From positions 960,001-992,000 of the forward strand of contig NC_008578.1 of assembly GCF_000015025.1 (NCBI RefSeq): a DNA stretch of 32,000 nucleotides, written 5' to 3'. Below are positions 7,564 through 31,214 of the stretch, in pieces. The DNA is from Acidothermus cellulolyticus 11B. Lineage in GTDB: Bacteria; Actinomycetota; Actinomycetes; Acidothermales; Acidothermaceae. Both the position numbers and the translations under genes were made by a program. The notes under the pieces are model-generated. The model saw nothing but the letters and a program-made list of their open reading frames with translations. It was not told the origin of the DNA and ran no database searches. Numbering within the stretch: position 1 is the first letter of the stretch; every line of letters starts with the position of its first letter.

Positions 7564-7572
7564 GGAGTTCCC

Positions 7573-9137: not shown

Positions 9138-9160
9138 AGTGTGCTCCTTTTCGTCAGTGG

Positions 9161-15093: not shown

Positions 15094-15109
15094 GAACTGG
15101 GAGGTGCGG

Positions 15110-16222
15110 ATGGGTGATGAATACCCGACCGTGCATGCCGCGGCTGTCCAGGCGGCCTCCGTCTTCCTCGACCGGGAACGGTCGACGCAGAAGGCTTGTC
15201 GACTGATCCGGGAGGCGGGTCGCGGAGGCGCTGACATCATTGGTTTTCCGGAGGGATTCATTCCGGCGCATCCCATCTGGTTTCACTTCCACCCCGCAAC
15301 GGGGTCGATCGCGACCGAGCTGAGCGTCGAATTATTCAAGAACGCCGTTGAAATCCCGGGACCGGAGGTAGTCGAGCTGCAGCGGGCAGCGGCTGATGCC
15401 CGCGCCTACGTTGTCGTTGGCGTCTGCGAGAAACGCCCCAATACGTTCGGCACGCTGTACAACAGCCAACTGTTCATCGGACCGGACGGTACACTTCTTG
15501 GCTGCCGCCGTAAGATCACGCCCACCGTGGGAGAGCGTCTCGTGCACACCGGCGGCAGCGGGGACGGTTTGTCGGTGTTCCGGACGGATTTCGGGCCGGC
15601 GAGTGCACTCATCTGCGGAGAGAACTCCAATCCGCTGGCCATTTTTGCGCTGACCGCGCAATACACCCAGGTGCACGTCATGAGCTGGCCGTGTCACTTT
15701 CCGACAACCGGCGCCCCGATGCGCGACCGGGTCTCGGTGGATTCCCGGGCCTTCGCTCAGATGACCAAGGCATACGTCATGAGCTGCTGTGGAACAGTCG
15801 ACGAGACCGCTCTCGCGAAGCTTCGTCTCAGCCCGGACGACGAGGAACTCATCCGCCGCCCCGACTTTTGCGGCGGATCCCTCATCGTCGCACCGGATGG
15901 TCGGGTGATTGCCGGACCACTCGGCAACGAGGAAGCCATCCTCTACGCGGATTTGGATCTGGAACTCGGGATTCGGATGAAATTGCGTCACGATTTCGCC
16001 GGGCATTACAACCGCCCGGACATTTTTGAGCTTCGGATCCGCACTGCGGAGCCTCGACTGCTCACCGTCCGGGACACTGCCGAAAATCCGGTTCTCGAAC
16101 AGGTCGAGGGCCCTGCGCGGGCCGAACAAGTTTCTGCACCGGTGCGGTTCGCCGTCGAGCAGGGCGGCCTGCCGAGCCTAACCGGTGGTCTCGGGGTAGA
16201 CGTTGGCGGTGAGCAGCACTAG
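15110..16222 (+). CDS. Nitrilase-superfamily carbon-nitrogen hydrolase (nitrilase-like)
   Basis: Nitrilase-type N-terminus HAAAVQAASVFLDRERS. Glu-Lys-Cys triad context: GFPEGFIP, CRRKITPT, LICGENSNPL. RBS GGGAGG lies 5 nt before ATG 15110 (GTG 15092 is an alternative). The 3' end overlaps the convergent cupin gene by 45 nt. Confidence 0.85.
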   Translation: MGDEYPTVHAAAVQAASVFLDRERSTQKACRLIREAGRGGADIIGFPEGFIPAHPIWFHFHPATGSIATELSVELFKNAVEIPGPEVVELQRAAADARAYVVVGVCEKRPNTFGTLYNSQLFIGPDGTLLGCRRKITPTVGERLVHTGGSGDGLSVFRTDFGPASALICGENSNPLAIFALTAQYTQVHVMSWPCHFPTTGAPMRDRVSVDSRAFAQMTKAYVMSCCGTVDETALAKLRLSPDDEELIRRPDFCGGSLIVAPDGRVIAGPLGNEEAILYADLDLELGIRMKLRHDFAGHYNRPDIFELRIRTAEPRLLTVRDTAENPVLEQVEGPARAEQVSAPVRFAVEQGGLPSLTGGLGVDVGGEQH

Positions 16223-16528
16223 ATCGCCGGTCGAATCGGCCCAAAGACCGTGGGGTTCCCGGATGTCGGTGACAATGAGATCGCCGGGTTCGATCGCCCT
16301 GCGTTCCTTTCCAACCATCGCCTCACCGCGTCCCTGGAGAACGCAGAAAACGTGTTCGTAGTCGTCGATATGTGGACCGAATGCTCCGCCGCGCTCGATC
16401 CGGGTGAGCGAGAGTCGCGTTCTGCCGCCGCGTTCGGTGGGCAGCAGCAGGTACGAGGTCACTTGATCAGCTCCTCGGCGCTCAACGTGTCGCCAACCAT
16501 TTTCCTCGGGAGTAAAGATCCGGCCCAT
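16178..16528 (-). CDS. Cupin-domain protein
   Basis: Small beta-barrel protein with cupin-like motifs (GAFGPHIDDYEHVFCVLQGRGE, IEPGDLIVTDIREPHG). RBS GAGGAGGA lies before ATG 16528. Confidence 0.7.
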   Translation of the reverse strand: MGRIFTPEENGWRHVERRGADQVTSYLLLPTERGGRTRLSLTRIERGGAFGPHIDDYEHVFCVLQGRGEAMVGKERRAIEPGDLIVTDIREPHGLWADSTGDLVLLTANVYPETTG

Positions 16529-16704
16529 CGTCGTCCTCCTCGCGGGCGAAACTCCTCGTCGCGCCGACACGCAATGTGTCGAGCAGGGCTTCCGTCGACG
16601 GAGTGGCTCCTTGGCTCCTCGATGCTATGACCTTTCGTGGTGCAGTGTCACAGCGTCCACAGAGAACCCCTTCGCGTAGCACGGGCATCTAGAGGAAGGA
16701 TGCA

Positions 16705-17172
16705 ATGGCTGGCGGATCAGTGTTCGTCAAGGAAATCGTTCGAGTGCCGGGACTCGAGGAGACCGCCGAATTCGGGTACTCGCAGTGTGTGCGGGCCGGG
16801 CCGTTGGTCTTCATCGCCGGGCAGTGTGGACTGAACGAGCGGCATGAGGTCGTCTCCAGCGATTTCCTCGAGCAGGCGCGGACTGCACTCGATCGTGTAC
16901 ATGCCGCGGTCCGGGCGGCCGGTGGAACGCTCGGTGACATCGTCGCGATGACCGTCTTTCTCACGGACACCAGCCTTGGTCGGATCTTCACGGCGCTCCG
17001 GAGGGAGTACTTCGGCGGCGACTTCCCGGCGAGCGCCTTGATTGGCGTGCATAGTCTCATGCCTACGGGTGCGATGATCGAGATTCAGGCGATCGCCGTT
17101 CTTGGCGCGAGCGGTCAGCCAAATCCGACCGGTGGGCCGAACGATTGCGGACGACGCGGCTTCAGGCCGTAA
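16705..17172 (+). CDS. RidA/YjgF-family reactive-intermediate (enamine/imine) deaminase-like protein
   Basis: YSQCVRAGPLVFIAGQCG ... DIVAMTVFLTD ... IEIQAIAVL is typical of the RidA family. RBS AGAGGAAGGA lies upstream. Confidence 0.85.
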   Translation: MAGGSVFVKEIVRVPGLEETAEFGYSQCVRAGPLVFIAGQCGLNERHEVVSSDFLEQARTALDRVHAAVRAAGGTLGDIVAMTVFLTDTSLGRIFTALRREYFGGDFPASALIGVHSLMPTGAMIEIQAIAVLGASGQPNPTGGPNDCGRRGFRP

Positions 17173-17177
17173 AGCCT

Positions 17178-17189
17178 GCAATCGTTTCT
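17178..17189. promoter_or_regulatory. Operator-like site B1, GCAATCGTTTCT (reverse complement AGAAACGATTGC)
   Basis: Matches the regulon motif. Lies 6 nt after the RidA stop, at the start of the 304-bp non-coding leader. Confidence 0.4.
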
Positions 17190-17444
17190 TCCAGACATTG
17201 ATCTCGAAAGAGGCCTGCGCACTGCGGTCGAGTGACAGGAGCCTCCCGACGTGCACCGGCCGACGGTGCGATGTCACCCGGCATGCGCGCCAGACAGCGC
17301 AGTTCCGCCACGCATGTGCGACCGAGGACGCCGTCCGGGCCGGGTGCTTCGCCGACAACGTCACGGAAATGTTGCGACCGTATTGGACGGCTGTGCCGGC
17401 TCTTGACTTGGCTCGGAACTCGGCGGATGCTAAGGCTCAAGCAT

Positions 17445-17456
17445 GCATCCGTTTGC
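17445..17456. promoter_or_regulatory. Operator-like site B2, GCATCCGTTTGC (reverse complement GCAAACGGATGC)
   Basis: Matches the regulon motif, 21 nt upstream of the permease GTG. Its left part pairs with CGGATGC at 17424-17430 as an inverted repeat. Confidence 0.5.
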
Positions 17457-17476
17457 AGTGCGGTGGGAGGCGGATA

Positions 17477-18244
17477 GTGCAGCCGGACTGGCGGCGGCGC
17501 ACCCGAGCCCTTGCCGGATACGCCGGCGGCGTCCTGCTGGGCGTTGCCGCGTGGCAGATCGTCGGGAGTCACAGCCAACCGCAGATCTTCGTTACCCTCA
17601 CCGCGACCCTGCGGCACCTCGGCAGCATGATCGACGATGGTACCTTGCCGCAGGCGCTGGTGAATTCGTTCTCGGTTTACGGCGCAGGGGTGGGAATTGC
17701 GATTCTTCTGGGTGCCCTCGGCGGTCTGCTTCTCGCACGAATTCGCGTGTTGCGGGTCGCCTTCGAGCCGTACATCATGGGGCTCTACGCCACGCCGCTC
17801 ATTGCGTTGATCCCGTTCATCCTCGCTCTGCTGGGGTACCGGTTCTGGCCGAAGGTCGTCGTCGTCTTTCTCTTTTGCGTTTTCCCGGTATTGCTGGCTA
17901 CCCAGCGAGGCGCCCAGAGCGTAGCGGTTGAGTTGATGGAGGTTGCCAAACTTTATCGATCGAGTGAACGGGCGATTTGGTTGCACGTCGTCATTCCGTA
18001 CACCCTGCCGTTCTTCATGACGGGTGTTCGCCAGGCGCTGGCCCGGGGACTTGTTGGCATGATCGCTGCCGATATCTTCCTCAGTGCGAACGGGCTCGGC
18101 GGCTTGCTCGTCTCGGCGGCCCAACAGTTCAGCACCGCCGAGATGCTCGCCGTTGTTCTCGTGATTACCGTCGCAGGCTTGATGCTGATGGCGGTCGGCC
18201 GGCTCGTGGAGAAGTACTTCGCTCGGTGGCGGGTGACCGGATGA
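17477..18244 (+). CDS. ABC transporter permease (NitT/TauT / SsuC-like family)
   Basis: Six-TM BPD-transporter permease with an EAA-like loop (EVAKLYRSSERAIWLHVVIPYTLP). GTG 17477 is preceded by GGGAGG. The upstream 125 codons of ORF 17102 are not protein-like. Confidence 0.85.
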   Translation: MQPDWRRRTRALAGYAGGVLLGVAAWQIVGSHSQPQIFVTLTATLRHLGSMIDDGTLPQALVNSFSVYGAGVGIAILLGALGGLLLARIRVLRVAFEPYIMGLYATPLIALIPFILALLGYRFWPKVVVVFLFCVFPVLLATQRGAQSVAVELMEVAKLYRSSERAIWLHVVIPYTLPFFMTGVRQALARGLVGMIAADIFLSANGLGGLLVSAAQQFSTAEMLAVVLVITVAGLMLMAVGRLVEKYFARWRVTG

Positions 18245-19071
18245 GCAGCGGTGTGGAAACGTTGCGCAGTACTCCGGTACGCGGAGACGACGAATGGGCG
18301 GCCGCGGGTGCCGGACCGTGGTGGTGTCGTCCCGCTGTGCTTCGTATTGCTGCGGGCGTGCTCATTCTTGCGGTCTGGCAGTTTGTCGTCGGATCGTGGG
18401 CTCCCCATTACGTGGCCCGACCGATCGGGGTCGTGCGCGACCTGCCGAAGGTCTTGACCGACAACGTCTTTTATCACGACCTCGGCAGTACGCTCTTCGC
18501 GGTCATCGTCGGCCTTCTCATTGCTCTCGTTGGCGGTAGTCTTCTCGGCCTTGTGGTGGGTCGACTGAGCGACGTGCAACGCGTTCTCGGCATGTACGTC
18601 AGCGGCCTCTATGCGATGCCCATCATCGCGCTGGTCCCGCTCATCACGGTCTGGTTCGGCTACAGCGCGACCACGCGCCTCGTCGTCATCGTCATCGAAG
18701 CAGGATTGCCGATCGTCTACAGCGTCGCGGAGGGAGCGCGGGCCGTCCCGGTGATGCACATCGAGGTGAGCCGGCTCTACCGTGCGCCCTGGTGGCGGGT
18801 CTGGGGCGGAGTCGTCCTTCCGGCGGCGGTACCGTACGTGCTTGCCGGCGTCGATCTGGCCATCGGCCGAGCGCTTATCGGCGCTGTCGCCGCTGAGTTC
18901 ATTGCAGCCGTCCATGGACTGGGCTATTACGTGCTCTCTCACGTCAATTCCTTCAAAGAGGATCAGGCATTCGTTGCTGTCTTAGCCTTGGCGCTCCTTG
19001 CCGTGCTCCTCCGGGCGGCGGTCAATGGGGCGACTCGGCGATGGCTCCGGTGGTACCGGCAGAGTGGCTGA
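18241..19071 (+). CDS. ABC transporter permease (second subunit, same family)
   Basis: Paralogous permease (EVSRLYRAPWWRVWGGVVLPAAVPY). ATG 18241 overlaps the previous stop (ATGA). Confidence 0.85.
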   Translation: MSSGVETLRSTPVRGDDEWAAAGAGPWWCRPAVLRIAAGVLILAVWQFVVGSWAPHYVARPIGVVRDLPKVLTDNVFYHDLGSTLFAVIVGLLIALVGGSLLGLVVGRLSDVQRVLGMYVSGLYAMPIIALVPLITVWFGYSATTRLVVIVIEAGLPIVYSVAEGARAVPVMHIEVSRLYRAPWWRVWGGVVLPAAVPYVLAGVDLAIGRALIGAVAAEFIAAVHGLGYYVLSHVNSFKEDQAFVAVLALALLAVLLRAAVNGATRRWLRWYRQSG

Positions 19072-19082
19072 GCGAGGGAACC

Positions 19083-19937
19083 GTGACCGCTTCACCGACG
19101 ATTCGCGTTGAGGGCTTGACGAAAGCCTTCGGCACGAGGGTTGTCTTCCGCGACCTCTCCTTTACGGTGGGGGGCGACGAAATTGTCTCCATCGTCGGAC
19201 CGTCCGGTTGCGGAAAGACCACCCTGCTGCGTTGCGTTGTCGGCTTGATGGCTCCAACCGATGGCGCGGTGTACATTCACGATCGGAGGGTGACCGAACC
19301 GCCGCCCGGAGTGGCGATGGTGTTCCAGAATTTTGGTCTCTTTCCATGGAAGACCGTCACGGCGAACATCGCCTATGGGCTGGTTGTTCAGGGCGTGCCG
19401 GCACGGGTCTGGCGGCCGAAAGTTGAGCACCTCATCAAGCTTGTCGGTTTAGCGGGTTTCGAGAAGGCGTATCCGTACCAACTCTCCGGCGGCATGCAGC
19501 AACGTGCCGGTCTCGCGCGTGCACTGGCCATCGACCCCACGGTCCTGGCGATGGATGAGCCGTTCGCCTCCCTTGATGCACAGACCCGTGACCTCCTGCA
19601 GCTTGAGGTGCTGCGGATCTGGGATGCACACCCGGTGGCGACACTCTTCGTCACGCACTCGATCGACGAAGCTGTGCTGATGGGGGATCGTGTCGTGATT
19701 TTGCGTGGCCGGCCGAGTCAAATCTTCGACATTGTGACTGTTGGACTACCAAGGCCCAGGACGCGGGAGGCCGTCGACACGGAGCGGTTCCGGATCGTAC
19801 GCGATTACGTCTGGAACGCGGTGATGCAAACGGATTCACCGGCATCTCCCCTCAACGATGCTGCAGCGTCCGTTCACCAAGGCGTCGCTTCTTCGGCACG
19901 TATCGTCGGGCACGAGACAGGACAGGAAAGAAGATGA
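19083..19937 (+). CDS. ABC transporter ATP-binding protein (NitT/TauT family)
   Basis: Walker A GPSGCGKTT, signature LSGGMQQR, Walker B LAMDEPFASLD. GTG 19083 is preceded by GAGGGA (ATG 19041 is an alternative). Confidence 0.88.
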   Translation: MTASPTIRVEGLTKAFGTRVVFRDLSFTVGGDEIVSIVGPSGCGKTTLLRCVVGLMAPTDGAVYIHDRRVTEPPPGVAMVFQNFGLFPWKTVTANIAYGLVVQGVPARVWRPKVEHLIKLVGLAGFEKAYPYQLSGGMQQRAGLARALAIDPTVLAMDEPFASLDAQTRDLLQLEVLRIWDAHPVATLFVTHSIDEAVLMGDRVVILRGRPSQIFDIVTVGLPRPRTREAVDTERFRIVRDYVWNAVMQTDSPASPLNDAAASVHQGVASSARIVGHETGQERR

Positions 19938-21106
19938 CAACACGCGCACTCAACCAGCGGCTGGCATGGGCCAGCCTTCTCACCGCAGGAATGCTTGCCC
20001 TTGCAGCGTGCAGCAGTTCCAAGCCGGCGTCGACGTCCGCGGCATCCTCGACGGCTGCACCGAGTAGTGCAGCGTCCAGCTCGGCGAGCTCTCCGGCAAG
20101 TTCAGCGAGCGGGTCGGCCGGCGCCTCGGCACCCACGGCGCCGCACGGCACCGCCCCGGTGAGCCCCCCTCCGGCAGGACCGCTGCCTAAGCTGACCATC
20201 GGAAGTCCAGGCGTGCCGCCGGTCGTCTCCGGTCTGCTTCCCTACATCGCCGACAAGAAGGGCTTTTACAAGGCGTTCGGCGTCGACGTGACGGTGAAGA
20301 GCTTCACGACTGGTACCGATGCCACGCGAGCCATGTCCACCGGACAGATTGACATAGCCATCGCGCCTCCCGCTCAGGTGGTGGCATTGGTCGCGAAAGG
20401 CATCCCTATCGTCGCGATCCAAGGACAAGAGAATCCTGACTGGGTTGTCGTCTCTACCGATCCGGCCATCAACTCGTGTCAGAAACTCAAGGGTCAGGGC
20501 GTCGGTGTCGACGCGATCGGCGGCATCCGGTACACCGCACTTGCCGTGATGCTCAAGACCTGCGGTCTTACCATTAAGGACGTTCATCCGCTGGCCTTCC
20601 CAGGTGACGCCAACCCGCAAGCAGTCATCGCCGGTCAACTGAAGGTGTCCGTGCTGCACCTCAATGAGGTGGTAGCGGTTCAGCAGCAACTCGGCAAGCC
20701 GCTGACCACCGTGATGGTGCAAGCGCAGGTTGTGCCGAACTCCATGTATGAGATGTTCGCCACCTTGAAGAGCAAGCTCGACCAGAACAGGGACGCTTTC
20801 GTCCGGTTCGTTGCTGCGCAGATCGCTACCTTGAATTGGATGTTTGATCCCGCCAATGCCGACGAGGTGGCTCAGCTGGCGACCGTGGTTGGCGACAGCG
20901 CCCAGGTGATGAAGCAGGCGATGGCCGAGTACAAGCAGATGGATTTCTGGAGCCTTGACAGCGCCGGACTGCCGCAGACGAATGTTGAGAATGTCATCAA
21001 ATCTCAAGTCGCGGCAGGCAATGTGCCGGCGGACAAGGCCCCGACTTACAGCCAGATCGTCGACCTCTCGGTGTACCAGGACGCGCAGAAGCTCGTCCAG
21101 CCGTAG
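19934..21106 (+). CDS. ABC substrate-binding lipoprotein, NMT1/THI5-like (SsuA/TauA-type)
   Basis: Signal peptide with lipobox LAAC, then a ~65-aa Ser/Ala/Pro linker and a type-2 periplasmic-binding fold. ATG overlaps the ATPase stop (ATGA). Confidence 0.85.
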   Translation: MTTRALNQRLAWASLLTAGMLALAACSSSKPASTSAASSTAAPSSAASSSASSPASSASGSAGASAPTAPHGTAPVSPPPAGPLPKLTIGSPGVPPVVSGLLPYIADKKGFYKAFGVDVTVKSFTTGTDATRAMSTGQIDIAIAPPAQVVALVAKGIPIVAIQGQENPDWVVVSTDPAINSCQKLKGQGVGVDAIGGIRYTALAVMLKTCGLTIKDVHPLAFPGDANPQAVIAGQLKVSVLHLNEVVAVQQQLGKPLTTVMVQAQVVPNSMYEMFATLKSKLDQNRDAFVRFVAAQIATLNWMFDPANADEVAQLATVVGDSAQVMKQAMAEYKQMDFWSLDSAGLPQTNVENVIKSQVAAGNVPADKAPTYSQIVDLSVYQDAQKLVQP

Positions 21107-21233
21107 CCGTGAGGCGGCATGCCGGGTGAACCGGTTGGCCGAGCGGATGACGTTCAGGCAAGCGCTTCGATAACGAGCCGAAGCGGTGCGGAGTGCGCAT
21201 GAACCGTGCGTACGGCCGGTGCGGCGTCGATGC

Positions 21234-21279
21234 GGCGGTTTCCTGGCCCACGAAACGACCGGCGGGCCAGGAAACCGTC
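21234..21279 (+). terminator. Strong hairpin (13 perfect bp GGTTTCCTGGCCC / GGGCCAGGAAACC, extendable to ~16 bp, 14-nt loop); possible U-tail-less terminator of the ABC operon
   Basis: Arms read directly at 21237-21249 and 21264-21276, ~130 nt after the binding-protein stop. There is no T-tract, so the assignment is tentative. Confidence 0.4.
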
Positions 21280-21547
21280 CACCGGCCCCCTCGCCGTGAC
21301 TGCTTCCGTCCGCCGCAGTCTGTTTGGTCCACTGAACGTGGGTGTCCGGCGCTGCGGCGGTGTCGTTACCCGAACGGTGGAGATCAATGGAAACCAAGGG
21401 AAAGTCCGGCGGTGGTCGGGACGAGTTGATGCGCACGGCAAACCTGGCTGCGGTGCTTCGAATCGAGCGTTGCGCCGGACGTCCTGCGCGCATCGGACAG
21501 ACGCTGGGCGCGCTGATCGCCCTGAGGCCGGCGGAAGGTGGAGGACC

Positions 21548-22621
21548 ATGGTGGATGAGCGCGTAAGAATCGCGATTGAGAATTGGGGCCCCCGCTTCAC
21601 GACGAACGGGGTGACGTACAGCGACTTCCACGAGGTGCTCAGTCGCATCACCACGTGGGAGGAGTGGTGCTCGGCGTGGTGCACCGCCGCGGAGCCGTAC
21701 GTGGAACTGGGCAGAGCGGCGCTTGACGAGGGGCGTACGTTGTCCGCAGGAGATCACTTCTCGCAAGCAGCCGTGTATTATCACTTTGCGAAGTTTCTCT
21801 TCGTCGATGACATGGAACAAATGCGCGCTGCGCACCAGAAGGCCGTGGAGTGTCTCACCACCGCCCTGCCCTATCTCGATCCGCCGGGTCGGCGCATCAC
21901 CGTTCCGTTTGAAGGCGCGCGGATGGTCGGCATCCTGCGCCTGCCGCGCGGCGAGCCGCCTTTCCCCGCGGTCATGCTCATTCCGGGGCTTGACTCAACC
22001 AAGGAGGAGTTCCGTTCCACCGAGCAACTCTTCCTGCAGCGTGGATTGGCGACATTCTCTGTCGACGGACCCGGCCAAGGCGAGGCCGAGTACGACTTAC
22101 CGATCCGGCCGGACTGGGAGGTTCCAGGCGCGGCGTTGCTCGATGCCCTGGCTTCTCAACCTGAGATTGATCCAGCCCGGCTGGGGATCTGGGGCGTTAG
22201 TCTCGGAGGTTATTACGCTCCGCGGCTGGCTAGCGGTGATCAACGTGTCAAGGCGTGTATCGCCCTTGCCGGACCCTGGAACTTTGGTGCGTGTTGGGAC
22301 GGACTCAACGAGTTGACCCGGGCGGCGTTCCGGGTCCGATCGCGGAGTCGTTCCGACGAGGAGGCACGCGCAAAAGCCGCCCAACTGACGCTCGACGGCC
22401 GCGCGGAAAGGATTCGCTGCCCCTTACTCGTCGTTGCCGGAAAGCGGGATCGACTGATTCCTTGGCAGGATGCGGTCAGACTCGCCGAGGCGGCAGGGTC
22501 GCAGGCGGAATTGCTCCTGCTGGAGAACGGAAATCACGGCGGCATGAACGTTGCTGCGCAGCATCGGCAGCGATCGGCGGATTGGATGGCCCGCATTCTC
22601 GGCGGGCGAGTGGCCGGATGA
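21548..22621 (+). CDS. Alpha/beta hydrolase, DHPON-hydrolase/FrsA-like family
   Basis: Nucleophile elbow GVSLGG. Family-like blocks NWGPRFTTNGVTYSDF, YYHFAKFLF, GLDSTKEE and DGPGQGE. ATG 21548 is preceded by GGAAGGTGGAGGA. The upstream in-frame stretch is not protein-like. Confidence 0.8.
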   Translation: MVDERVRIAIENWGPRFTTNGVTYSDFHEVLSRITTWEEWCSAWCTAAEPYVELGRAALDEGRTLSAGDHFSQAAVYYHFAKFLFVDDMEQMRAAHQKAVECLTTALPYLDPPGRRITVPFEGARMVGILRLPRGEPPFPAVMLIPGLDSTKEEFRSTEQLFLQRGLATFSVDGPGQGEAEYDLPIRPDWEVPGAALLDALASQPEIDPARLGIWGVSLGGYYAPRLASGDQRVKACIALAGPWNFGACWDGLNELTRAAFRVRSRSRSDEEARAKAAQLTLDGRAERIRCPLLVVAGKRDRLIPWQDAVRLAEAAGSQAELLLLENGNHGGMNVAAQHRQRSADWMARILGGRVAG

Positions 22622-22692
22622 CATGAACCGTCTGCGCGACTCAGCGGTGCGGTTCCCTCACAGTGTGCGATGGGATAAGGAGGTTGTCAAAC

Positions 22693-23349: not shown

Positions 23350-23372
23350 GCGGCGAGGCGCCTGCGCGGGCC

Positions 23373-24512
23373 CTAGAGCTCGGTCAGAATCGGAGAGTGG
23401 GGTCGGCTCGGGGATACGCTGTCGGGCCGGTCCTGCGTGGCGGGAGCACGAAGCGTCGTCTCACCGCTTTGCCTGGCGCCCCCCGGCCGACGAGAAGAGG
23501 CCGGCGGAGCAGTCGAGCCCCGGACGACAAGCTCCAACGGGAGAAGGATCGATTTCGCGGGCGTATCGGGCTTGTGAAGGCGTTCGAGGAGCATGTGGGC
23601 CGCCTCGGACCCGACCCGATAATGCGGAATGCGCACCGTGGTAAGGGCGGGCTGAAGCTTGTCAACGATGGGCATGTCGTTGAAGCCGACGATGCTGAGC
23701 TCGTCAGGGCAGTGAATGCCGCGCTCGCGCATGAGGTCGTAACACCCGAGCGCCAGGAGGTCGTTGCCGGCCAGGACGGCGGTGAATTCCACGCCGCGAT
23801 CAAGGAGTTCGGCAAGGCCGCGGGCGCCCTCCGCTTCGGTCCACGCGCTGCAGTGGGCAACGAGGTCGTCATCGTGCGGCAAGCCAAGGTCCTGCAGCGC
23901 TTGCCGGTAGGCGCGCAGCCGGAATTGACCAGTCGACGTGTGCTGCGGGCCGGCGAGATGTGCGATGCGGCGATGACCGAGCGTCACCAGGTGATGCACC
24001 GCGAGGTACACGCCGCCCGCGTCATCTCCGGTCACTGACGGGAAGCCGGGGGTGTTCATTCGCCGGTTGATGAGGACCAGCGGCACCCGCTGCTCCCCCA
24101 GCCGCTGGAGAAGCGGGTCCTCCAAGAGTGCGGTCGCCAGAATGAGTCCGTCGACCTGGCGGGCGCGCAGCGACGCGATGTGAGCGGCCTCGCGTTCCTT
24201 GTCGTTGTCTGTGTTGACAAGCAAGAGGCTGTACCCGAGAGGGCTCAGCACGTCGTCGATGCCGCGCACAATCGGTGGAAACAGGAGGTTCGTCAGGTCA
24301 GGGATGACAACGCCGATCGAATTCGTGCGGTTCGTTTTCAGACTTCTCGCGATCGGGTTGGCGACGTAGCCGAGCTGCGCGGCCGCTTCGAGGACCCGTT
24401 GCGCCGTCTCCGCGCTCACCATCGAGCGGGTGGCGGGATTGAGCGCCCGCGATGCGGTGGCGGCATGGACGCCGGCCAATCGCGCGACATCGCGGAGGCG
24501 GGGCACGGTCAT
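23373..24512 (-). CDS. LacI-family transcriptional regulator (candidate regulator of the accessory block)
   Basis: HTH LRDVARLAGVHAATASRALN, hinge ARSLKTNRTNSIGVVIPD and a sugar-binding-type core. A ~50-aa low-complexity C-terminal tail follows. Start taken at MTVPRL (ATG 24512). Confidence 0.85.
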   Translation of the reverse strand: MTVPRLRDVARLAGVHAATASRALNPATRSMVSAETAQRVLEAAAQLGYVANPIARSLKTNRTNSIGVVIPDLTNLLFPPIVRGIDDVLSPLGYSLLLVNTDNDKEREAAHIASLRARQVDGLILATALLEDPLLQRLGEQRVPLVLINRRMNTPGFPSVTGDDAGGVYLAVHHLVTLGHRRIAHLAGPQHTSTGQFRLRAYRQALQDLGLPHDDDLVAHCSAWTEAEGARGLAELLDRGVEFTAVLAGNDLLALGCYDLMRERGIHCPDELSIVGFNDMPIVDKLQPALTTVRIPHYRVGSEAAHMLLERLHKPDTPAKSILLPLELVVRGSTAPPASSRRPGGARQSGETTLRAPATQDRPDSVSPSRPHSPILTEL

Positions 24513-24617
24513 GAGTCTCATTATCCGGGTGAACAACCGATTGTCCATGGAAAGCAGCGGCGGGAGCGGCTCGCGCAGTGGCGCGGAAGGAGTGCACCGT
24601 CTCGCGCCGTCCGCTGC

Positions 24618-25535: not shown

Positions 25536-25548
25536 CGTGACTCCTCAT

Positions 25549-25560
25549 ACAAACGGTTGC
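25549..25560. promoter_or_regulatory. Operator-like site C, ACAAACGGTTGC
   Basis: Regulon motif within the 57-bp divergent region between the NMT1-like/LacI operon and the LVIVD operon. Confidence 0.55.
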
Positions 25561-25592
25561 GTCGATGATAGGGGCAGCAGCTAGGCTGAGCC

Positions 25593-26840
25593 ATGCAACC
25601 GGGGCGTGGAGGTGACTGGACGGTGATCGACGGTCCGGACGGCGGATATCGCCCTTCCGAGCGGGGTTTACGGCTGACCGGACACCATGATCTCGGCGGT
25701 CGGGGCGATGGGATGCAGGTGATGCGCTGGGGATCGGCGGTGTACGTCGGACACGTCGGCACCAGCCGCGCCGGCACGTCCGTCCTTGACGCCTCGGATC
25801 CGGAACGACTTCGACTCGTCGAGCAGTGGCCGGCCCCCAACCGTTCGCATACACACAAGGTTCAGGTCGCGGACGACGTGCTCCTCGTCAATCACGAGAA
25901 GTTCCCCTACCGCGTACCGGCCGACGGACCGGTCTCCGCGGGCGTAGCCATTTACGACGTCAGCCGCCCTCTGGAGCCCCGGCGGATCGCCTTCTGGGAG
26001 TGCGGCGGCATCGGGGTGCACAGGATCGTCTGGACCGGGGGACGGTATGCGCACATGTCAGCGACGCCGGCGGGTTTCCGGGACCGCATCTGGATCGTGC
26101 TCGACCTCGCTGATCCATTCCATCCGGTGGAGGCCGCGCGATGGTGGTGGCCCGGTCAACGGGACGACGAGGTGCCCGACTGGCCGGCGGAGCTGCGTTA
26201 CGCCGCGCACCATGCGTTGATCGCCGACGGACGGGCGTTCGTTGGCTATGGCGATGCGGGCATGGTGATCCTGGATGTCGCCGATATCACCCGGCCACGG
26301 TTGCTTCACCGTGTTTCCTGGCCGGACGGCGGCGATACCCACACCTGCCTGCCGCTGCCGGGGCGCCGTCTCATTGCTGTGACGGACGAGCAGGTCCGGG
26401 ACGGTCCCGGCGCGCCGCCACGGAAGATTCGGCTGTTCACGATGGACGATCCACCCCGGCTGGTGAGCGTGCTGCCGGCACCGGACGACGAGTTCGCGAG
26501 CCTGCCGCTGCGCTACGGTGCACATAATCTTCACGAGAACCGGCCGCGTTCCTACCAGAGCGAGGACATCCTCTTCGCGACGTATTTCAGCGCCGGGCTC
26601 CGTGTTTATGACATCAGCGATCCCGGGCAGCCGGTGGAAATCGCCCATTGGTGTCCGCCGGTGCCGCCGGGTCAGGCGGTGCCGCAGATCAACGATGTAT
26701 TCGTCGACCATGAGGGGCTCATCTGGGTGACGGATCGGCTGAACGGCGGCCTCTACGTGCTCGAGCCGGAACCGGAACTGCGGCGGCGGATGCTCCATCA
26801 CGCGCCACCCACCCGGTCCGGCGGCCCGAGAGGATGGTGA
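25593..26840 (+). CDS. LVIVD-repeat beta-propeller protein (COG5276-like), no signal peptide
   Basis: Repeated LVIVD-type units: VAIYDVSRPLEPRRI, MVILDVADITRPRLL, LRVYDISDPGQPVEI, TSVLDASDPERLRL. Confidence 0.68.
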   Translation: MQPGRGGDWTVIDGPDGGYRPSERGLRLTGHHDLGGRGDGMQVMRWGSAVYVGHVGTSRAGTSVLDASDPERLRLVEQWPAPNRSHTHKVQVADDVLLVNHEKFPYRVPADGPVSAGVAIYDVSRPLEPRRIAFWECGGIGVHRIVWTGGRYAHMSATPAGFRDRIWIVLDLADPFHPVEAARWWWPGQRDDEVPDWPAELRYAAHHALIADGRAFVGYGDAGMVILDVADITRPRLLHRVSWPDGGDTHTCLPLPGRRLIAVTDEQVRDGPGAPPRKIRLFTMDDPPRLVSVLPAPDDEFASLPLRYGAHNLHENRPRSYQSEDILFATYFSAGLRVYDISDPGQPVEIAHWCPPVPPGQAVPQINDVFVDHEGLIWVTDRLNGGLYVLEPEPELRRRMLHHAPPTRSGGPRGW

Positions 26841-27463
26841 TTCCGGTGAAGGCGCCGCGCATTTCGCTCGTGGATCCCGCATCGGCGGAAGGAGAGGTCG
26901 CGGAGATCTTCGCGCGTCAAGTAGCTCAATTCGGCACCGTGAGCAACTTCTACCGGACGCTGGCGCATGCCCCGGCCGCCATCGCATGCTGGACGACGAT
27001 GAATGCCGGGCTTCGCCTCCGCTACGTGACGGACGACCTGAGTTTCCTCCAAGTCGAACAGATGGCCATCATCAAGACGTCACAGCTCAACGGCTGTGAC
27101 TATTGCCTCGGTCACAATCTCGAGCTGGGCCGCGACGCGGGACTTAAGCCGCGCCAAATCGCCGCCGTACTCGGTACCGTGCCGGACGACGACGTGCTGA
27201 CCCCCGCGCAGCGGTGTGCGGTCCGGTGGGCGGAAGCGGTCACATTGCTCACCGCCGAAGACGACGACGAGCTTTTCACGGAACTGCGCCGGCACTTTTC
27301 CGAGCGCCAAATCGTCGAACTCACCTTCCTCATCGGCATGTGGAACTGCTCGAATCGGGTCAACCGTGCACTGCGGGTCGAGCTCGAGGCGCCGGAATGC
27401 CGACTCCACTTCGTCCGGCCAGCCGGCTCTCCGACCCGTACCGAAAGGGGGCGAGAGGGGTGA
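26834..27463 (+). CDS. Carboxymuconolactone decarboxylase (AhpD-like) family protein with CDYCLGH motif
   Basis: CMD-domain protein with LNGCDYCLGHN. The start overlaps the LVIVD stop (ATGGTGA) and the stop overlaps the next start (GTGA). Confidence 0.8.
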   Translation: MVIPVKAPRISLVDPASAEGEVAEIFARQVAQFGTVSNFYRTLAHAPAAIACWTTMNAGLRLRYVTDDLSFLQVEQMAIIKTSQLNGCDYCLGHNLELGRDAGLKPRQIAAVLGTVPDDDVLTPAQRCAVRWAEAVTLLTAEDDDELFTELRRHFSERQIVELTFLIGMWNCSNRVNRALRVELEAPECRLHFVRPAGSPTRTERGREG

Positions 27464-27966
27464 CCGAGCACGTCACATTCGTCGTCAACGGCGTGGAACG
27501 GACGGTGACAGGCTCTCCGGATGTCCCGCTGTTGTACGTGCTGCGGAATGATCTCGGTCTCATGGCAGCGAAATTTGGCTGTGGCATGGGACTCTGCGGC
27601 ACATGCACGGTTCTCCTCGACGGCCGTCCGGTGCATTCCTGCGACACGCCGCTGTGGGCGGCGGCCGGCAAGACCGTCGCCACGTTGGAGGGCATCCTGG
27701 ATGAACCGGTGGGCGCCGCCTTGGAACGAGGATTTCTTGACCACCAGGCATTGCAGTGCGGATATTGCACGGCCGGGATGATGGTCACTGCGGCTGCATT
27801 GCTGCGGGAGAAGCCCAATGCCGACGAGGACGCTGTTCGGGCGGCGCTCAGTCGCAATCTCTGCCGCTGCGGGGCACACCAGCGTATTGTCGCCGCAATT
27901 CGCAGCGCTGCGCAGCAACTCGCGAACAGTGCTTCCGCCGGCAACCCAGCGGAGGACGGCCAATGA
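27460..27966 (+). CDS. (2Fe-2S)-binding small subunit of molybdenum hydroxylase (IorA-type)
   Basis: Two [2Fe-2S] cysteine clusters: GCGMGLCGTCTV...SC and QCGYCTAGMM...LCRCGAHQRI. GTG 27460 is coupled to the CMD stop. Confidence 0.9.
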   Translation: MTEHVTFVVNGVERTVTGSPDVPLLYVLRNDLGLMAAKFGCGMGLCGTCTVLLDGRPVHSCDTPLWAAAGKTVATLEGILDEPVGAALERGFLDHQALQCGYCTAGMMVTAAALLREKPNADEDAVRAALSRNLCRCGAHQRIVAAIRSAAQQLANSASAGNPAEDGQ

Positions 27967-30104
27967 GCGGTTCGACGTACGCGGCATGGTTCGACCGGCC
28001 GAAGCCGAGCCTGGAGAGAAATCCGAAGCTCCTGAGGTGGCTGGATTTCGGCACCGAAGGCCGCATCACCGTCAAGACGGGGAAAGTTGAGCTGGGACAG
28101 GGGATTCTCACTGCGCTCGCCCAGATCGCGGCTGAGGAGCTCGACGTCGACATCCGTCGCATCGTCGTGGAGCCCAGCCGGACCGGAGTGAGTCCCGAAG
28201 AGGGATACACGGCCGGGAGTCTCTCCGTCCAGCACTCTGGTGATGCCATCCGCCAGGCCTGTGCGCATGCACGGGCGCTGTTCCTGCAACTGGCCGCTCG
28301 AGAGCTTGGTGTTGCTGCGGAGGCGCTGCGCGTCGACGACGGTGCCGTCGTGACGACCGATGGCCGCCGTACCGACTACTGGCGGCTCGCACGCTACCTC
28401 AACGAGGACATTGACGTCGATCCGACGGTCGCGCCGAAGAAGCCTGACGAGTACGTCATCGTCGGGCGTTCGCATGCCCGAGTGGACATTCCGGCCAAGG
28501 TGCGTGGAATTCCGCGGTTCATCCACGACATCCGCTTGCCGGGCCAGCTGTTCGGGCGGGTCGTTCATCCGCCGGCACGGGTTGCCACCCTGGTCGCGGT
28601 CGACGAAGCAGCCGTGACGGCGCTGCCAGGCGTTGTCCGCGTGGTACGCGAGAACAATTACCTGGGCGTCGTGGCTGAGCGTGAAGACATCGCCGTCCGT
28701 GCCGCCAAACTGCTCAACGAGAAGGCGCGCTGGAACGTCGAGCCCAGCCTGCCGGATGAGTCCCGGCTCGTCGATTACCTCACGTCGGCTCCTTCGGAGG
28801 AGAAGGTCTTGTACGAGAGCGGCGAGCCGGGCTCAATTTCCCGGTACCTGCGCCGGCGCTTCTCCCGCGGGTACATCGCCCACGCCTCGCTCGCGCCGTC
28901 GTGCGGTATCGCCCGGTGGGACGGCGACCGCTTGACCGTCTGGACGCACTCGCAGGGAATTTACGCGCTGCGTCAGGACCTTGCCCGGGCTTTTGGCCTG
29001 GACGAAAGGAATATCGAGGTTATTCACGCCGAGGGTGCTGGTGCGTACGGTCACAATCCGGCTGACGACGCGGCCTACGATGCAGCATGGCTGGCAGCTG
29101 CGGTTCCGGGACGGCCGGTTCACGTCATGTGGTCTCGTGAGGATGAGTTGTCCTGGGATCCGTTCGGCGCGGCGATGGTGGTCGACGTGACGGTGGGGCT
29201 CGACCCTGCGGGCGCCATCGCCCACTGGGAACAGCATGTGTGGAGCAACGGGTTCTCCAGCCGCCCCGGGATGTTGCCCGAACCCGCGTTCTTCGGCGCC
29301 TGGTACAAGGGTCGCACGACGTCCCCGATGGTCTCCGTGGATCCGCCGTTGAGCAACGGCGCGGGCTCGGGACGGAATGCGGTACCCGGATATGCCGTGC
29401 CCTCGATTCGGGTGGTGACGCACCGATTGCTTGAAATGCCGCTGCGGACGTCCTCGCTGCGTTCGCTCGGTGCTCACCTCAACGTGTACGCGATCGAGTC
29501 GGTCATTGACGAGGTCGCGCGGGAATCCGGACGCGATCCGGTCGAGTTTCGGCTCTCGATGCTCTCCGATCCACGCGCGCGACGCGTCGTGGAGACCGTC
29601 GCCGAGCGGGCCGGATGGGGGAGCGCGTTGCCCTCCGGCGGCGCCTGGGGGCGGGGCCTCGGATTTGCGCGGTACAAGAATATGGGTGCCTACTGCGCAG
29701 TTGTTGCCGACGTGGAGGCGGAGACTGACATTCGGGTGCGTCGGCTTACGATCGCTGTTGATGTCGGCCTGGTCGTCAATCCTGACGGCGTGCGCAACCA
29801 GATTGAGGGCGGCGCAATTCAGTCGGTGAGCTGGACAACGCTCGAGCAGGTGCATTTTGACCGCTATCGCGTCGTGACCAGTACCTGGGAGGATTACCCG
29901 ATTCTCGACTTTTCCCGGGTGCCGGACGTCGACGTGGTTCTCATCGATAATCCTGAGGCGCCGCCGGTCGGTTCCGGCGAAGCGGCAACAGGACCCACCG
30001 CAGCGGCCATCGGCAACGCGGTCGCCGATGCGCTGGGTGTTCCGGTTCGAGCCCTGCCCCTGGTTCCCGAGAACGTCGTGGCGGCATTGACGACCACGTC
30101 CTGA
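27963..30104 (+). CDS. Molybdopterin-binding large subunit of xanthine-dehydrogenase-family hydroxylase (IorB-type)
   Basis: 713 aa. IorB-like N-terminus (KTGKVELGQGILTALAQIAAEELDV) and C-terminal Mo-co binding blocks (NPDGVRNQIEGGAIQS, PPVGSGEAATGPTAAAIGNAV). ATG overlaps the small-subunit stop (ATGA). No twin-arginine signal. Confidence 0.88.
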   Translation: MSGSTYAAWFDRPKPSLERNPKLLRWLDFGTEGRITVKTGKVELGQGILTALAQIAAEELDVDIRRIVVEPSRTGVSPEEGYTAGSLSVQHSGDAIRQACAHARALFLQLAARELGVAAEALRVDDGAVVTTDGRRTDYWRLARYLNEDIDVDPTVAPKKPDEYVIVGRSHARVDIPAKVRGIPRFIHDIRLPGQLFGRVVHPPARVATLVAVDEAAVTALPGVVRVVRENNYLGVVAEREDIAVRAAKLLNEKARWNVEPSLPDESRLVDYLTSAPSEEKVLYESGEPGSISRYLRRRFSRGYIAHASLAPSCGIARWDGDRLTVWTHSQGIYALRQDLARAFGLDERNIEVIHAEGAGAYGHNPADDAAYDAAWLAAAVPGRPVHVMWSREDELSWDPFGAAMVVDVTVGLDPAGAIAHWEQHVWSNGFSSRPGMLPEPAFFGAWYKGRTTSPMVSVDPPLSNGAGSGRNAVPGYAVPSIRVVTHRLLEMPLRTSSLRSLGAHLNVYAIESVIDEVARESGRDPVEFRLSMLSDPRARRVVETVAERAGWGSALPSGGAWGRGLGFARYKNMGAYCAVVADVEAETDIRVRRLTIAVDVGLVVNPDGVRNQIEGGAIQSVSWTTLEQVHFDRYRVVTSTWEDYPILDFSRVPDVDVVLIDNPEAPPVGSGEAATGPTAAAIGNAVADALGVPVRALPLVPENVVAALTTTS

Positions 30105-30200
30105 ACATCGCCCCGGCTCGGCGCTTCGTCGGGCGACGGCCCGCGAACCTCGCGATTCCAAGGCCGCTCCGACTCGTGGCGCTCGATGGCGGCGCGAGCG

Positions 30201-30230
30201 TTGACAGTCGAGCCCCACGCTCGCTAAGGT
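30201..30230 (+). promoter_or_regulatory. Putative sigma-70-type promoter (TTGACA-N18-TAAGGT) of the dehydrogenase gene
   Basis: -35 TTGACA at 30201-30206 and -10 TAAGGT at 30225-30230, 40 nt before GTG 30270. Confidence 0.5.
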
Positions 30231-30235
30231 GATTA

Positions 30236-30247
30236 ACAAACGATTGC
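30236..30247. promoter_or_regulatory. Operator-like site D, ACAAACGATTGC
   Basis: Regulon motif 5 nt downstream of the putative -10, nearly the same geometry as site A. Confidence 0.55.
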
Positions 30248-30269
30248 ACGATGCAAGAGAGGAAGCCCC

Positions 30270-31214
30270 GTGGTGGACACCCCGCAACCGCTGCGCGTCG
30301 GCTGGATCGGAACCGGGCGAATGGGCTTCGCGATGGCTCGTCGCCTGGCTCGAAGCGGTATCAATCTCACCGTCTGGAATCGCACCCGGTCCAAAGCCGA
30401 ACCGCTCGCCGGTGACGGTGCGCGGGTGGTCGAGCGGATCGCCGATCTCGGCGGCTGTGACGTGGTATTCACGATGGTGGCCTCGTCGCCCGACCTGGAG
30501 GAGGTTCTCGCCGGCCCCGAGGGACTGCTCCGGAAGGCCGAGCCCAAGCCGCAGATCGTCGTCGATTGTTCGACCGTCTCGGTTGAGACCTCAGCGGCGA
30601 TGCGCACCACGGCTGCCAAGGAAGGCGTGCAATTTCTCGCGGCACCGGTTAGTGGTAACGATCGAGTGGTGGCAGCCGGAAAGCTCAGCATCGTCGCATC
30701 CGGTCCGCGTGAGACGTTCGACCGGGTCGAACCCCTGCTGCGCACCATCGGCAGCGCGGCCATCTACGCGGGCGACGGCGAGATAGCCCGGTTGGTGAAA
30801 ATTTGTCACAACCTTCTCTTGGCGGCGGTGATCCAATCGGTTGCGGAGACTGCTGTTCTGGCGGAACGGGCCGGCGTACCACGTGCGACGTACCTGGAAT
30901 TCATCAACGCGAGCGTCATGGGCTCGATGTTCACCCGATACAAGACGCCGAGTCTCGTGTATCTTGACTGGACTCCCACGTTCACTCTCGAACTGCTCCG
31001 CAAAGATCTCGATCTCGGTCTCGCTGCGGCTCGAGCACTGGACGTGCCAATGCCCGTTGCTGCAGTCACGCATGAAGTCGTGCAAGCCGCCCTTGGGCGC
31101 GGTCATCGCGGAGTGGATTTCGCCGTCCTCCTGCTCGAAGCAGCACGGAACGCCGGTTTCGAACCCGCTCCGGAGACTGCGCAGGTGGACGACGGACTCG
31201 GCGGCAATTCCTGA
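30270..31214 (+). CDS. NAD(P)-dependent beta-hydroxyacid dehydrogenase (3-hydroxyisobutyrate / tartronate-semialdehyde reductase family)
   Basis: Rossmann motif VGWIGTGRMGFAMARRL and LAAPVSGN. Catalytic-Lys context ARLVKICHNLL. RBS AGAGAGGAAG lies upstream. Confidence 0.85.
   Translation: MVDTPQPLRVGWIGTGRMGFAMARRLARSGINLTVWNRTRSKAEPLAGDGARVVERIADLGGCDVVFTMVASSPDLEEVLAGPEGLLRKAEPKPQIVVDCSTVSVETSAAMRTTAAKEGVQFLAAPVSGNDRVVAAGKLSIVASGPRETFDRVEPLLRTIGSAAIYAGDGEIARLVKICHNLLLAAVIQSVAETAVLAERAGVPRATYLEFINASVMGSMFTRYKTPSLVYLDWTPTFTLELLRKDLDLGLAAARALDVPMPVAAVTHEVVQAALGRGHRGVDFAVLLLEAARNAGFEPAPETAQVDDGLGGNS

Follow-up and report, generated by a model that had tools for sequence, protein, structure and literature searches.

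We have characterized a 16-kb block of genes (15110-31214) on the chromosome of Acidothermus cellulolyticus 11B, within a stretch of 32,000 nucleotides that was analyzed as a whole and is called the window here. The block encodes an ABC importer, a two-subunit molybdenum (Mo) hydroxylase of the IorAB type, an alpha/beta hydrolase resembling DHPON hydrolase (HYD), an LVIVD beta-propeller protein, a nitrilase-like C-N hydrolase (NIT), a beta-hydroxyacid dehydrogenase (HIBADH), a cytosolic protein of the SsuA/THI5 fold (NMT1cyt), two CMD/AhpD-fold proteins (CMD1 and CMD2), a cupin, a Rid/YjgF-family protein and a LacI-family repressor. Our best explanation of the whole, which we favor tentatively, is a single LacI-repressed catabolic regulon that would import and degrade a nitrogen-containing compound, most likely a heteroaromatic one. 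It builds on gene identities, operator sites, co-conservation and the layout of the Mo-subunit and hydrolase genes, all of which were read directly, and from these we infer the substrate class and the order of steps. Each of the parts falls within a known superfamily, and in its logic the block resembles an ordinary catabolic regulon; no description of the cluster was found in the literature on these gene families and on Acidothermus. The gene types listed in an original prediction, made from the DNA letters, were all found in the block by Pfam, NCBIfam and PDB sequence searches of open reading frames (ORFs) chosen with guidance from GC content at third codon positions (GC3). Two further members, the LVIVD protein and NMT1cyt, were absent from that list.

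The palindrome CAAACGNTTG precedes four transcription units of the block, namely those beginning with NIT, the ABC operon, the LVIVD operon and HIBADH. Read by eye, one intergenic layout is repeated four times: TTGAC(N), 17-18 nt, TA(A/G)G(N)T, and then a GCAAACGATTGC-type palindrome; a generic sigma-70 scan did not pick up the promoters read in this way. When up to two mismatches were allowed, eight operator-like sites were counted in the window against 2.9 expected, and five of the eight are intergenic and promoter-proximal (Table 1). The regulator encoded in the block combines an HTH_LacI domain with a periplasmic-binding-like domain, and the palindromes near the promoters have a central CG, as in LacI regulons. 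In 1.96 Mb of related loci from other organisms, the 10-mer CAAACGNTTG occurs 114 times, or 134 times when both orientations are counted, against a mean of 5.9 for 200 shuffled, composition-matched motifs scored in both orientations, which is an enrichment of about 20-fold. Sixty-seven of the 114 sites (59%) lie no more than 200 nt upstream of genes of the recurring guild, a zone covering 7% of the sequence. In relatives, the motif lies before HIBADH (23 loci), HYD (10), NIT (10), ABC genes (6) and NMT1cyt (6). Judging from these sequence patterns, we propose that the LacI protein (23373-24548) binds CAAACGNTTG palindromes situated just 3' of the promoters of the four units.

Co-conservation was assessed in two samples of related loci. 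The HYD-centered sample comprised 80 genome loci with HYD homologues of 57-68% identity from Streptosporangiaceae, Geodermatophilaceae, Micromonosporaceae, Mycobacteriaceae, Pseudonocardiaceae, other actinomycetes and Dormibacterota, and neighbors within 10 kb of these homologues were counted by tblastn with all window proteins (Table 1, last column). IorA and IorB accompany LVIVD in 18 of the 20 LVIVD loci, a minimal IorAB-HYD-LVIVD trio is present in about 10 loci, and the genes for the IorB Mo subunit and HYD are divergent neighbors in about 30 related loci. De novo clustering of ORFs revealed frequent partners that are absent from the window: a DddP/creatinase-like M24 protein (M24a; 36 loci), a CrtI-like flavoprotein (26), an SSADH-like aldehyde dehydrogenase (ALDH; 17), as well as Liv-type ABC systems, a fused 2-oxoacid dehydrogenase E1 with E2, a second M24 protein and an MFS transporter. 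The NIT-centered sample comprised 80 metagenome loci with nitrilase homologues of 61-78% identity. Here CMD1 (16 loci, 59-80% identity), HIBADH (11) and HYD-like genes (11) were found as neighbors, along with NMT1-type ABC genes, LacI, NMT1cyt, LVIVD, M24a, ALDH and E1/E2; contigs from proteobacteria carried TctC receptors, an aldo-keto reductase, a Rid protein with an Arg-to-Ser change and a rhodanese. The nitrilase belongs to the same neighborhood as the HYD families. That these families come up again in 160 loci of other organisms, and that five promoter-proximal operator-like sites are present, shows that the grouping is more than chance. The original prediction had named conservation of the genes in other genomes as a check beforehand, and they do recur there as a co-conserved and co-regulated unit, in the form of a modular set and not of a fixed operon.

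Table 1. Features of the block and its boundary in the window. The last column gives the number of the 80 HYD-centered loci with a homologue, and its identity to the window protein.
Feature	Position	Strand	Evidence and remarks	HYD-centered loci
tRNA-Val (TAC)	14815-14887	+	left boundary of block; ARAGORN and Rfam RF00005, 72.4 bits	
LacI-type operator-like palindrome GCAAACGATTGT	15082-15093	.	17 nt before NIT start, 3' of TTGACG/TAGCGT hexamers	
NIT, branch-1 nitrilase-like C-N hydrolase	15110-16222	+	PF00795 7.6e-41; TIGR04048 190.5 bits vs cut-off 502.6; PDB 6zby 2.7e-51	0/80
Small cupin (Cupin_2)	16178-16570	-	PF07883 2.6e-12; convergent with NIT, overlaps its 3' end	0/80
Rid/YjgF-family protein	16705-17172	+	PF01042 8.6e-24; TIGR00004 71 bits vs cut-off 106	0/80
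Operator-like site, distal, before ABC operon	17178-17189	.	pattern search	
Operator-like site, proximal, before ABC operon	17445-17456	.	after TTGACT/TAAGGC hexamers	
ABC permeases (2)	17477-18244, 18241-19071	+	PF00528	3-5 of 80 (same type of ABC system)
ABC ATPase	19041-19937	+	PF00005 1.7e-29	
NMT1/THI5-type substrate-binding lipoprotein	19934-21106	+	PF09084 3.1e-25; lipobox LALAAC	
Strong hairpin after ABC operon	21233-21281	+	minimum free energy -52.1 kcal/mol for 21215-21300, z = -4.1	
HYD, DHPON-hydrolase-like alpha/beta hydrolase	21548-22621	+	2jbw E 1.5e-45	
CMD1, CMD/AhpD-fold protein, CEYC motif	22693-23349	+	PF02627; YciW-related NF053654 54.5 bits	15/80 (72-81%; one 52%)
LacI-family repressor	23373-24548	-	PF00356, PF13377, PF00532	39/80 (47-66%)
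NMT1cyt, cytosolic SsuA/THI5-fold protein, 305 aa	24618-25535	-	PF13379 (NMT1_2); no signal peptide	24/80
Operator-like site, divergent NMT1cyt/LVIVD promoter region	25549-25560	.	pattern search and sequence reading	
LVIVD beta-propeller, predicted metal-dependent hydrolase	25623-26840	+	PF08309; alternative start 25593; opens IorAB operon	20/80 (mostly 58-66%)
CMD2, CMD/AhpD-fold protein, CDYC motif	26834-27463	+	PF02627; TIGR01926 66.5 bits; overlaps both neighboring genes	0/80
IorA-like small subunit, two [2Fe-2S] domains	27460-27966	+	PF00111, PF01799	34/80 (about 50%)
IorB-like molybdopterin subunit	27963-30104	+	PF02738, PF20256; 8gy3_C 5.1e-49, residues 26-706	29/80 (about 50%)
Operator-like site ACAAACGATTGC	30236-30247	.	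after TTGACA/TAAGGT hexamers, 23 nt before HIBADH start	
HIBADH, beta-hydroxyacid dehydrogenase	30270-31214	+	PF03446, PF14833; PDB matches	52/80

The divergent arrangement of the IorB and HYD genes in relatives is that of the kdhC Mo-subunit gene and the DHPON hydrolase gene on pAO1, the plasmid of the nicotine pathway of Paenarthrobacter nicotinovorans. No other observation argues as strongly for consecutive action of the Mo enzyme and HYD as this shared layout, which favors hydroxylation followed by C-C hydrolysis of a heteroaryl compound. By analogy with that pairing, a heteroaryl ketone or acid would be the best single guess at the substrate. HYD aligns over its full length with the pAO1 enzyme (DHPONH) at 33-34% identity, has the alpha/beta fold and retains the Ser-Asp-His triad, with S218, D301 and H330 invariant in the family. 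It also matches AntI and Ayg1-like proteins (1e-16 to 1e-18); AntI and Ayg1-type enzymes are retro-Claisen C-C hydrolases. HYD forms a clade separate from DHPONH that is 65-74% identical internally, and more than 7,800 homologues were found at E <= 1e-20. HYD is not DHPON hydrolase (EC 3.7.1.19) itself, given the low identity and the lack of nicotine genes nearby. An ORF start at 21206 is probably wrong, since gene callers and homology to DHPONH both place the start at 21548.

The pAO1 cluster and the block also share a cupin gene, which on pAO1 follows the DHPON hydrolase gene, and a C-N hydrolase gene nearby. They differ in that the block has a Mo enzyme of the two-subunit IorAB type, lacks NDH, 6HLNO, DHPH and MABO, and has a LacI-type regulator; HYD falls in its own highly conserved clade, and the block is chromosomal in a thermophile and its cluster widespread in soil metagenome-assembled genomes (MAGs), not confined to nicotine degraders. 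The analogy to the nicotine pathway in the original prediction gains support from the divergent Mo-subunit/hydrolase pair and falls for the omega-amidase, as described below.

The Mo enzyme has two [2Fe-2S] domains in its small subunit and only MoCoBD_1/2 in its large subunit, as in other IorAB systems and in 8gy3, and no gene for a FAD or cytochrome c subunit lies near it. The IorAB family also includes isoquinoline 1-oxidoreductase, NicAB and NdhAB. Unlike homologues in Sinorhizobium meliloti and Roseomonas, which have a cytochrome c partner gene, the window IorAB is encoded downstream of the LVIVD propeller, in translational coupling with a CxxC CMD protein; the three junctions of LVIVD-CMD2-IorA-IorB are overlaps of a few bases, and by eye the N-terminus of IorB has no twin-arginine motif. 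Two candidates from this comparison were set aside. The IorB homologue on S. meliloti pSymB belongs to an ordinary cytochrome c-IorA-IorB unit without guild genes, and a gene resembling a substrate-binding protein that follows IorB in Roseomonas is not homologous to NMT1cyt.

From its structural model, we predict that the LVIVD protein is a metal-dependent hydrolase. The AlphaFold2 (AF2) model is a confident propeller (pLDDT 90.5), and its only specific structural relative, and best PDB fold match in Foldseek, is the binuclear-metal phosphotriesterase of Sphingobium sp. TCM1 (Sb-PTE, 5hrm; E 5e-17, TM 0.71). Many His, Glu and Asp residues are invariant across the family. The two proteins share the seven-bladed propeller fold, as predicted for LVIVD from the AF2 model, whereas identity is only ~19-20%, LVIVD has 405 residues against about 500, and its genomic context points to a catabolic hydrolase beside a Mo hydroxylase and not to organophosphate hydrolysis. 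LVIVD has ~2,100 homologues at E <= 1e-10, and the source names of the top 120 are all 'hypothetical protein' or 'LVIVD repeat-containing protein'. For HYD and LVIVD, the 120 best homologues share 63-74% identity with the window proteins, the named ones including Dormibacteria and Gemmatimonadota MAGs. Across distant lineages, both the hydrolase and the propeller retain 65-74% identity.

The NMT1cyt gene is co-transcribed with LacI and adjoins it in most loci. The AF2 model of NMT1cyt is a confident class II binding-protein fold (pLDDT 93.2), and its Foldseek matches to 3qsl, SsuA, TauA, ThiY, PqqT, THI5 and DszB do not discriminate between ligands. The importer comprises a binding protein with a lipoprotein signal, two permeases and an ATPase, as in NMT1/THI5/SsuA-type systems and as originally predicted. 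The binding lipoprotein has weak PDB matches to 3qsl, THI5 and ThiY and scored 50.9 bits with the SsuA_fam model (cut-off 163.5). Between its gene and HYD there is a non-coding gap of 442 bp (21106-21548) that holds the hairpin listed in Table 1. The HIBADH protein has tartronate-semialdehyde reductase as its best NCBIfam match (181 bits vs a cut-off of 341); a role as imine reductase was rejected, as the PDB matches are to genuine beta-hydroxyacid dehydrogenases.

A TauE/SafE-type anion exporter gene directly adjoins the CMD1 homologue in four loci (L048, L060, L062 and L092), which are mycobacterial apart from one metagenome locus; there is none in the window. For CMD1, this neighborhood hints at a connection with sulfur or anions.

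The omega-amidase that the original prediction had drawn from the nicotine cluster does not match the window nitrilase. Full-length matches are to true nitrilases and cyanide dihydratases (E 1e-41 to 1e-51; 6zby as in Table 1, CynD ~1e-49), with Nit2/omega-amidase (2w1v) far behind at 1.8e-10. The Glu-Lys-Cys triad is present in the motifs FPEG, RRKITP and ICGEN. Nitrilases usually have C-W-E after the catalytic cysteine, and here the motif reads C-G-E, so that classical nitrile activity is not assured. The score with the TIGR04048 model (Nit6803 family) falls far below the cut-off. The protein has a C-terminal tail of ~50 residues, the coding region of which overlaps the convergent cupin gene. 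A published genome-mining table lists a nitrilase ORF of 1131 bp for A. cellulolyticus 11B (NC_008578), which agrees in length with the ORF 15092-16222.

The cupin was present as predicted, on the minus strand and convergent with NIT, which corrects its orientation; a homologue of 71% identity adjoins a nitrilase homologue in one related locus (L090). The suggestion that the Rid protein removes enamines or imines, as RutC does, is doubtful. In an alignment with the sequence that we take to be that of E. coli RidA, the protein has Ser in the position of Arg105 (FPAS vs FPAR), and because Ser replaces this catalytic residue a RutC-like role as imine deaminase seems unlikely. Rid proteins near nitrilase homologues in proteobacterial contigs (the c47 proteins; L102, L113, L121) show the same Arg105-to-Ser change, and from these sequences they look like a distinct Rid subfamily tied to the window-type nitrilase clade. 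The closest plasmid-borne nitrilase homologue (54% identity; L167) is on plasmid pmega_2 of Rhodococcus ruber, amid Rieske/VanA-type oxygenases, PDR reductases, a cupin, a second C-N hydrolase, a cyclase, a CMD protein and a formate dehydrogenase, which is a different, demethylation-like context.

A pathway that would fit these parts can be outlined. The NMT1-type ABC system would import a small, polar nitrogen compound, most likely an acid or ketone of the pyridine or pyrimidine type. An oxo group would be placed next to the ring nitrogen by the cytosolic two-subunit Mo hydroxylase, after which the LVIVD metallohydrolase, HYD or both could cleave the activated ring or an acyl side chain, mirroring the step from KDH to DHPON hydrolase. 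The nitrilase might then take off a nitrile or related C-N function as ammonia, and HIBADH would interconvert a semialdehyde and a hydroxy acid, providing the link to central metabolism. The regulon would thus consist of the importer, an 'upper' module (IorAB, LVIVD, HYD and their CxxC CMD partners), an ammonia-releasing nitrilase/Rid side module and HIBADH. In other bacteria, LacI, NMT1cyt, HIBADH, M24a and the SSADH-like ALDH may form a common 'lower' set that is combined with interchangeable 'upper' modules, namely IorAB with LVIVD and HYD, the nitrilase, the CrtI-like flavoprotein or an LLM monooxygenase.

Several observations weigh against this outline. Among solved structures, the one closest to IorB is the large subunit of an aldehyde dehydrogenase (8gy3) and not a ring hydroxylase, and IorB is 46-49% identical to its counterparts in ordinary cytochrome c-linked IorAB enzymes of proteobacteria. 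When every window member and the main partner families were scanned against NCBIfam equivalog models, no cut-off was reached and no substrate-specific marker came to light. The nitrilase, cupin, Rid protein and CMD2 are missing from all 80 HYD-centered genome loci within the 10 kb searched, and the Rid protein is without the Arg on which imine deaminase activity depends. The window is without the M24a, ALDH and flavoprotein that are common in other loci, so the pathway that it encodes may be partial. A pattern search with up to two mismatches found no operator in the 442-bp gap before HYD, and expression of HYD-CMD1 may accordingly differ from that of the other units. The kinship to true nitrilases and the amino-acid- and carboxylate-type transporters in relatives point away from a heteroaromatic substrate as well, and the TauE, rhodanese, SsuA-type binding proteins, DddP-like M24 and SSADH near relatives suit aliphatic or organosulfur substrates roughly as well as they suit a heterocycle.

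We judge it rather unlikely that an aliphatic nitrogen compound is degraded, such as a nitrile, a cyanohydrin or a beta-substituted acid derived from an amino acid or betaine. IorAB would then be an aldehyde oxidoreductase, as its membrane aldehyde dehydrogenase relative suggests, the nitrilase would carry out the key C-N step, HYD would be an esterase or beta-keto-acid hydrolase, and HIBADH and ALDH would act on semialdehydes. The nitrilase is a true branch-1 relative akin to the Nit6803/Nit1C clade, in relatives it adjoins an MSMEG_0569-type flavoprotein as in Nit1C clusters, TctC carboxylate receptors flank it in proteobacteria, and the commonest partners (SSADH-like ALDH, DddP/creatinase-like M24, amino acid/urea-like ABC systems of the Liv type and 2-oxoacid dehydrogenase E1/E2) would suit such a substrate. 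The divergent pairing of Mo subunit and DHPONH-like hydrolase, however, is known from the cleavage of a heteroaryl ketone, loci with ALDH often carry IorAB too, so that these are not simple alternatives, and the CGE motif leaves nitrile hydrolysis of the classical kind uncertain. An organosulfur compound (a sulfonate, sulfonium or thiol derivative), handled with SsuA-type binding proteins, YciW-like CxxC CMD proteins and, in relatives, TauE exporters for sulfite, appears improbable to us. Both binding-type proteins are nearest to the SsuA/TauA families, CMD1 and CMD2 match a YciW-related model, TauE/SafE adjoins CMD1 in the mycobacterial loci and L092, a 3-mercaptopyruvate-sulfurtransferase-like rhodanese occurs with HIBADH-Rid-TctC-NIT in 4 loci, M24a has the DMSP lyase DddP as its nearest match, and a Streptomyces variant combines an LLM monooxygenase and a flavin reductase with an SsuA-type ABC system. 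All of these scores are nevertheless far under curated cut-offs, the LLM enzyme has no match to SsuD, TauE and rhodanese occur in few loci and neither in the window, and such a substrate leaves the Mo hydroxylase, the nitrilase and the C-C hydrolase unaccounted for.

We give equally little credence to the block being a mosaic of unrelated accessory genes that are adjacent by chance and share no pathway. The counts of zero for NIT, the cupin, Rid and CMD2, the highly variable gene content among loci and the missing partners M24a and ALDH would agree with it, whereas the operator shared by four window units and by the same families in 48 other loci, and the reciprocal association of families in the HYD- and NIT-centered searches, do not. 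Descent from a described pathway (nicotine, nicotinate, picolinate, Rut or oxidative pyrimidine, xanthine) as a diverged copy is very improbable. The likeness to pAO1 genes extends to families (Mo enzyme, DHPONH, cupin, C-N hydrolase), and there are weak matches to RutC and RutD; HYD, however, stands apart from DHPONH in its own clade, and there is no three-subunit Mo enzyme, DHPH, 6HLNO, NicC/NicX, RutA/B or barbiturase. The original prediction was right in seeing none of the canonical gene sets (nic, pic, rut, xanthine) here: all equivalog models remained far under their cut-offs, RutC, RutD, XdhA and PucD among them. The LacI-repressed regulon for a nitrogen-containing, possibly heteroaromatic compound remains our preferred account.

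Further described systems resemble the block in part. As family types, a C-N hydrolase, a Rid-family protein, an alpha/beta hydrolase and a semialdehyde reductase are shared with the Rut pathway (RutA-G), and the Streptomyces variant of the guild has an LLM monooxygenase and a flavin reductase. Unlike Rut clusters, the block has neither RutA nor RutB, scores only 43 bits vs 169 for RutC and 22 vs 238 for RutD, and has a Rid protein without Arg105; the LLM enzyme of the variant has no match to RutA. The Nit1C cluster (Podar et al. 2005, PMC1199592) resembles the block in its nitrilase, to whose Nit6803 family the window protein is related (190 bits), and in the MSMEG_0569-type flavoprotein adjoining relatives of that protein. 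It differs in its radical-SAM, GNAT and AIR-synthase genes, which the block lacks, and the score is far below the family cut-off. No conserved cluster was reported for nitrilase subfamilies 4-6 in that study (Podar et al. 2005, PMC1199592). Riboflavin catabolism was rejected as a match, as it uses different genes (P450, Rieske).

It is possible, if doubtful, that a widespread and undescribed catabolic system of soil bacteria is at hand, with a conserved LacI operator and new enzyme families (the LVIVD metallohydrolase, cytosolic IorAB with its CxxC CMD protein, the cytosolic SsuA-fold protein and a deep clade of DHPONH-like C-C hydrolases) that jointly act on a common natural N-heterocycle or nitrile. 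The main value of the block is as a well-defined and widespread target for pathway discovery, with unusually high conservation. Identification of the substrate would assign function to large families, namely the LVIVD propeller, the HYD clade, CMD1 and the cytosolic SsuA-fold protein, which are abundant in soil metagenomes and in MAGs of Actinomycetota and Dormibacterota. The conserved operator provides a handle for an inducer search, and thermostable forms of all the enzymes would be available from Acidothermus. For a heteroaromatic substrate, the route would be a new hydrolytic one that needs only one two-subunit Mo enzyme.

Some relatives carry reduced or altered versions of the set. In ten loci from actinomycete MAGs, the IorAB-HYD-LVIVD trio occurs without regulator or transporter, embedded among adenylate-kinase-like, PRPP-synthetase-like, glycerate-kinase-like, MaoC-like and methionine-aminopeptidase-like genes; the PRPP-synthetase-, adenylate-kinase- and methionine-aminopeptidase-like neighbors were judged to be local synteny and not pathway members, although a nucleotide-related role is conceivable. 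The variant on a plasmid of Streptomyces sp. YIM 121038 (L171/L172, 733-749 kb) has the LLM monooxygenase and flavin reductase in place of IorAB/HYD, accompanied by NMT1cyt-LacI, HIBADH-M24-SSADH, a VOC protein, E1ab-E2 and the SsuA-type ABC system. It is bracketed by several transposase genes, which is evidence for mobility of the module. A plasmid collection searched with HYD, NIT, IorB and NMT1cyt yielded distant homologues only.

In the window, GC content falls from ~0.70 before the block to 0.63-0.65 from its start, after the tRNA-Val gene, and GC3 is 0.67-0.78 in block genes against 0.78-0.86 in flanking genes. The lower values suggest a foreign origin of the block, which was probably acquired horizontally beside tRNA-Val. 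Against a genomic island, neither an integrase nor att-like direct repeats of the 3' end of tRNA-Val were found around the block. On the 5' side lie a TerC gene, an AraR-like LacI gene with araBDA, a fab-type cluster, a pirin gene, a DUF3052 gene and tRNA-Val, and on the 3' side NIF3, a zinc-ribbon protein and an RNase H/phosphatase fusion. The LacI-family gene on the 5' side (618-1730, minus strand), the second in the window, is divergent from genes for an FGGY kinase, a class II aldolase/epimerase and an L-arabinose isomerase, and the genes at 618-6047 are an araBDA-type arabinose operon. The minus-strand genes at 6139-12675 (fabD-like acyl transferase, KAS III, ACP, KAS I/II and carboxyl transferase) form a fatty-acid synthesis cluster of the fabD-fabH-acpP-fabF-accD type, with a PucR/GGDEF_2-type regulator gene (11500-12675) upstream on the same strand, an arrangement that we take to resemble the Streptomyces fab operon with FasR. 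An AHSA1/SRPBCC-like ORF (31361-31831) located 3' of HIBADH has no operator and is kept in none of the 80 HYD-centered loci, so it was left out of the regulon; on pAO1, an SRPBCC gene likewise lies near the DHPONH region.

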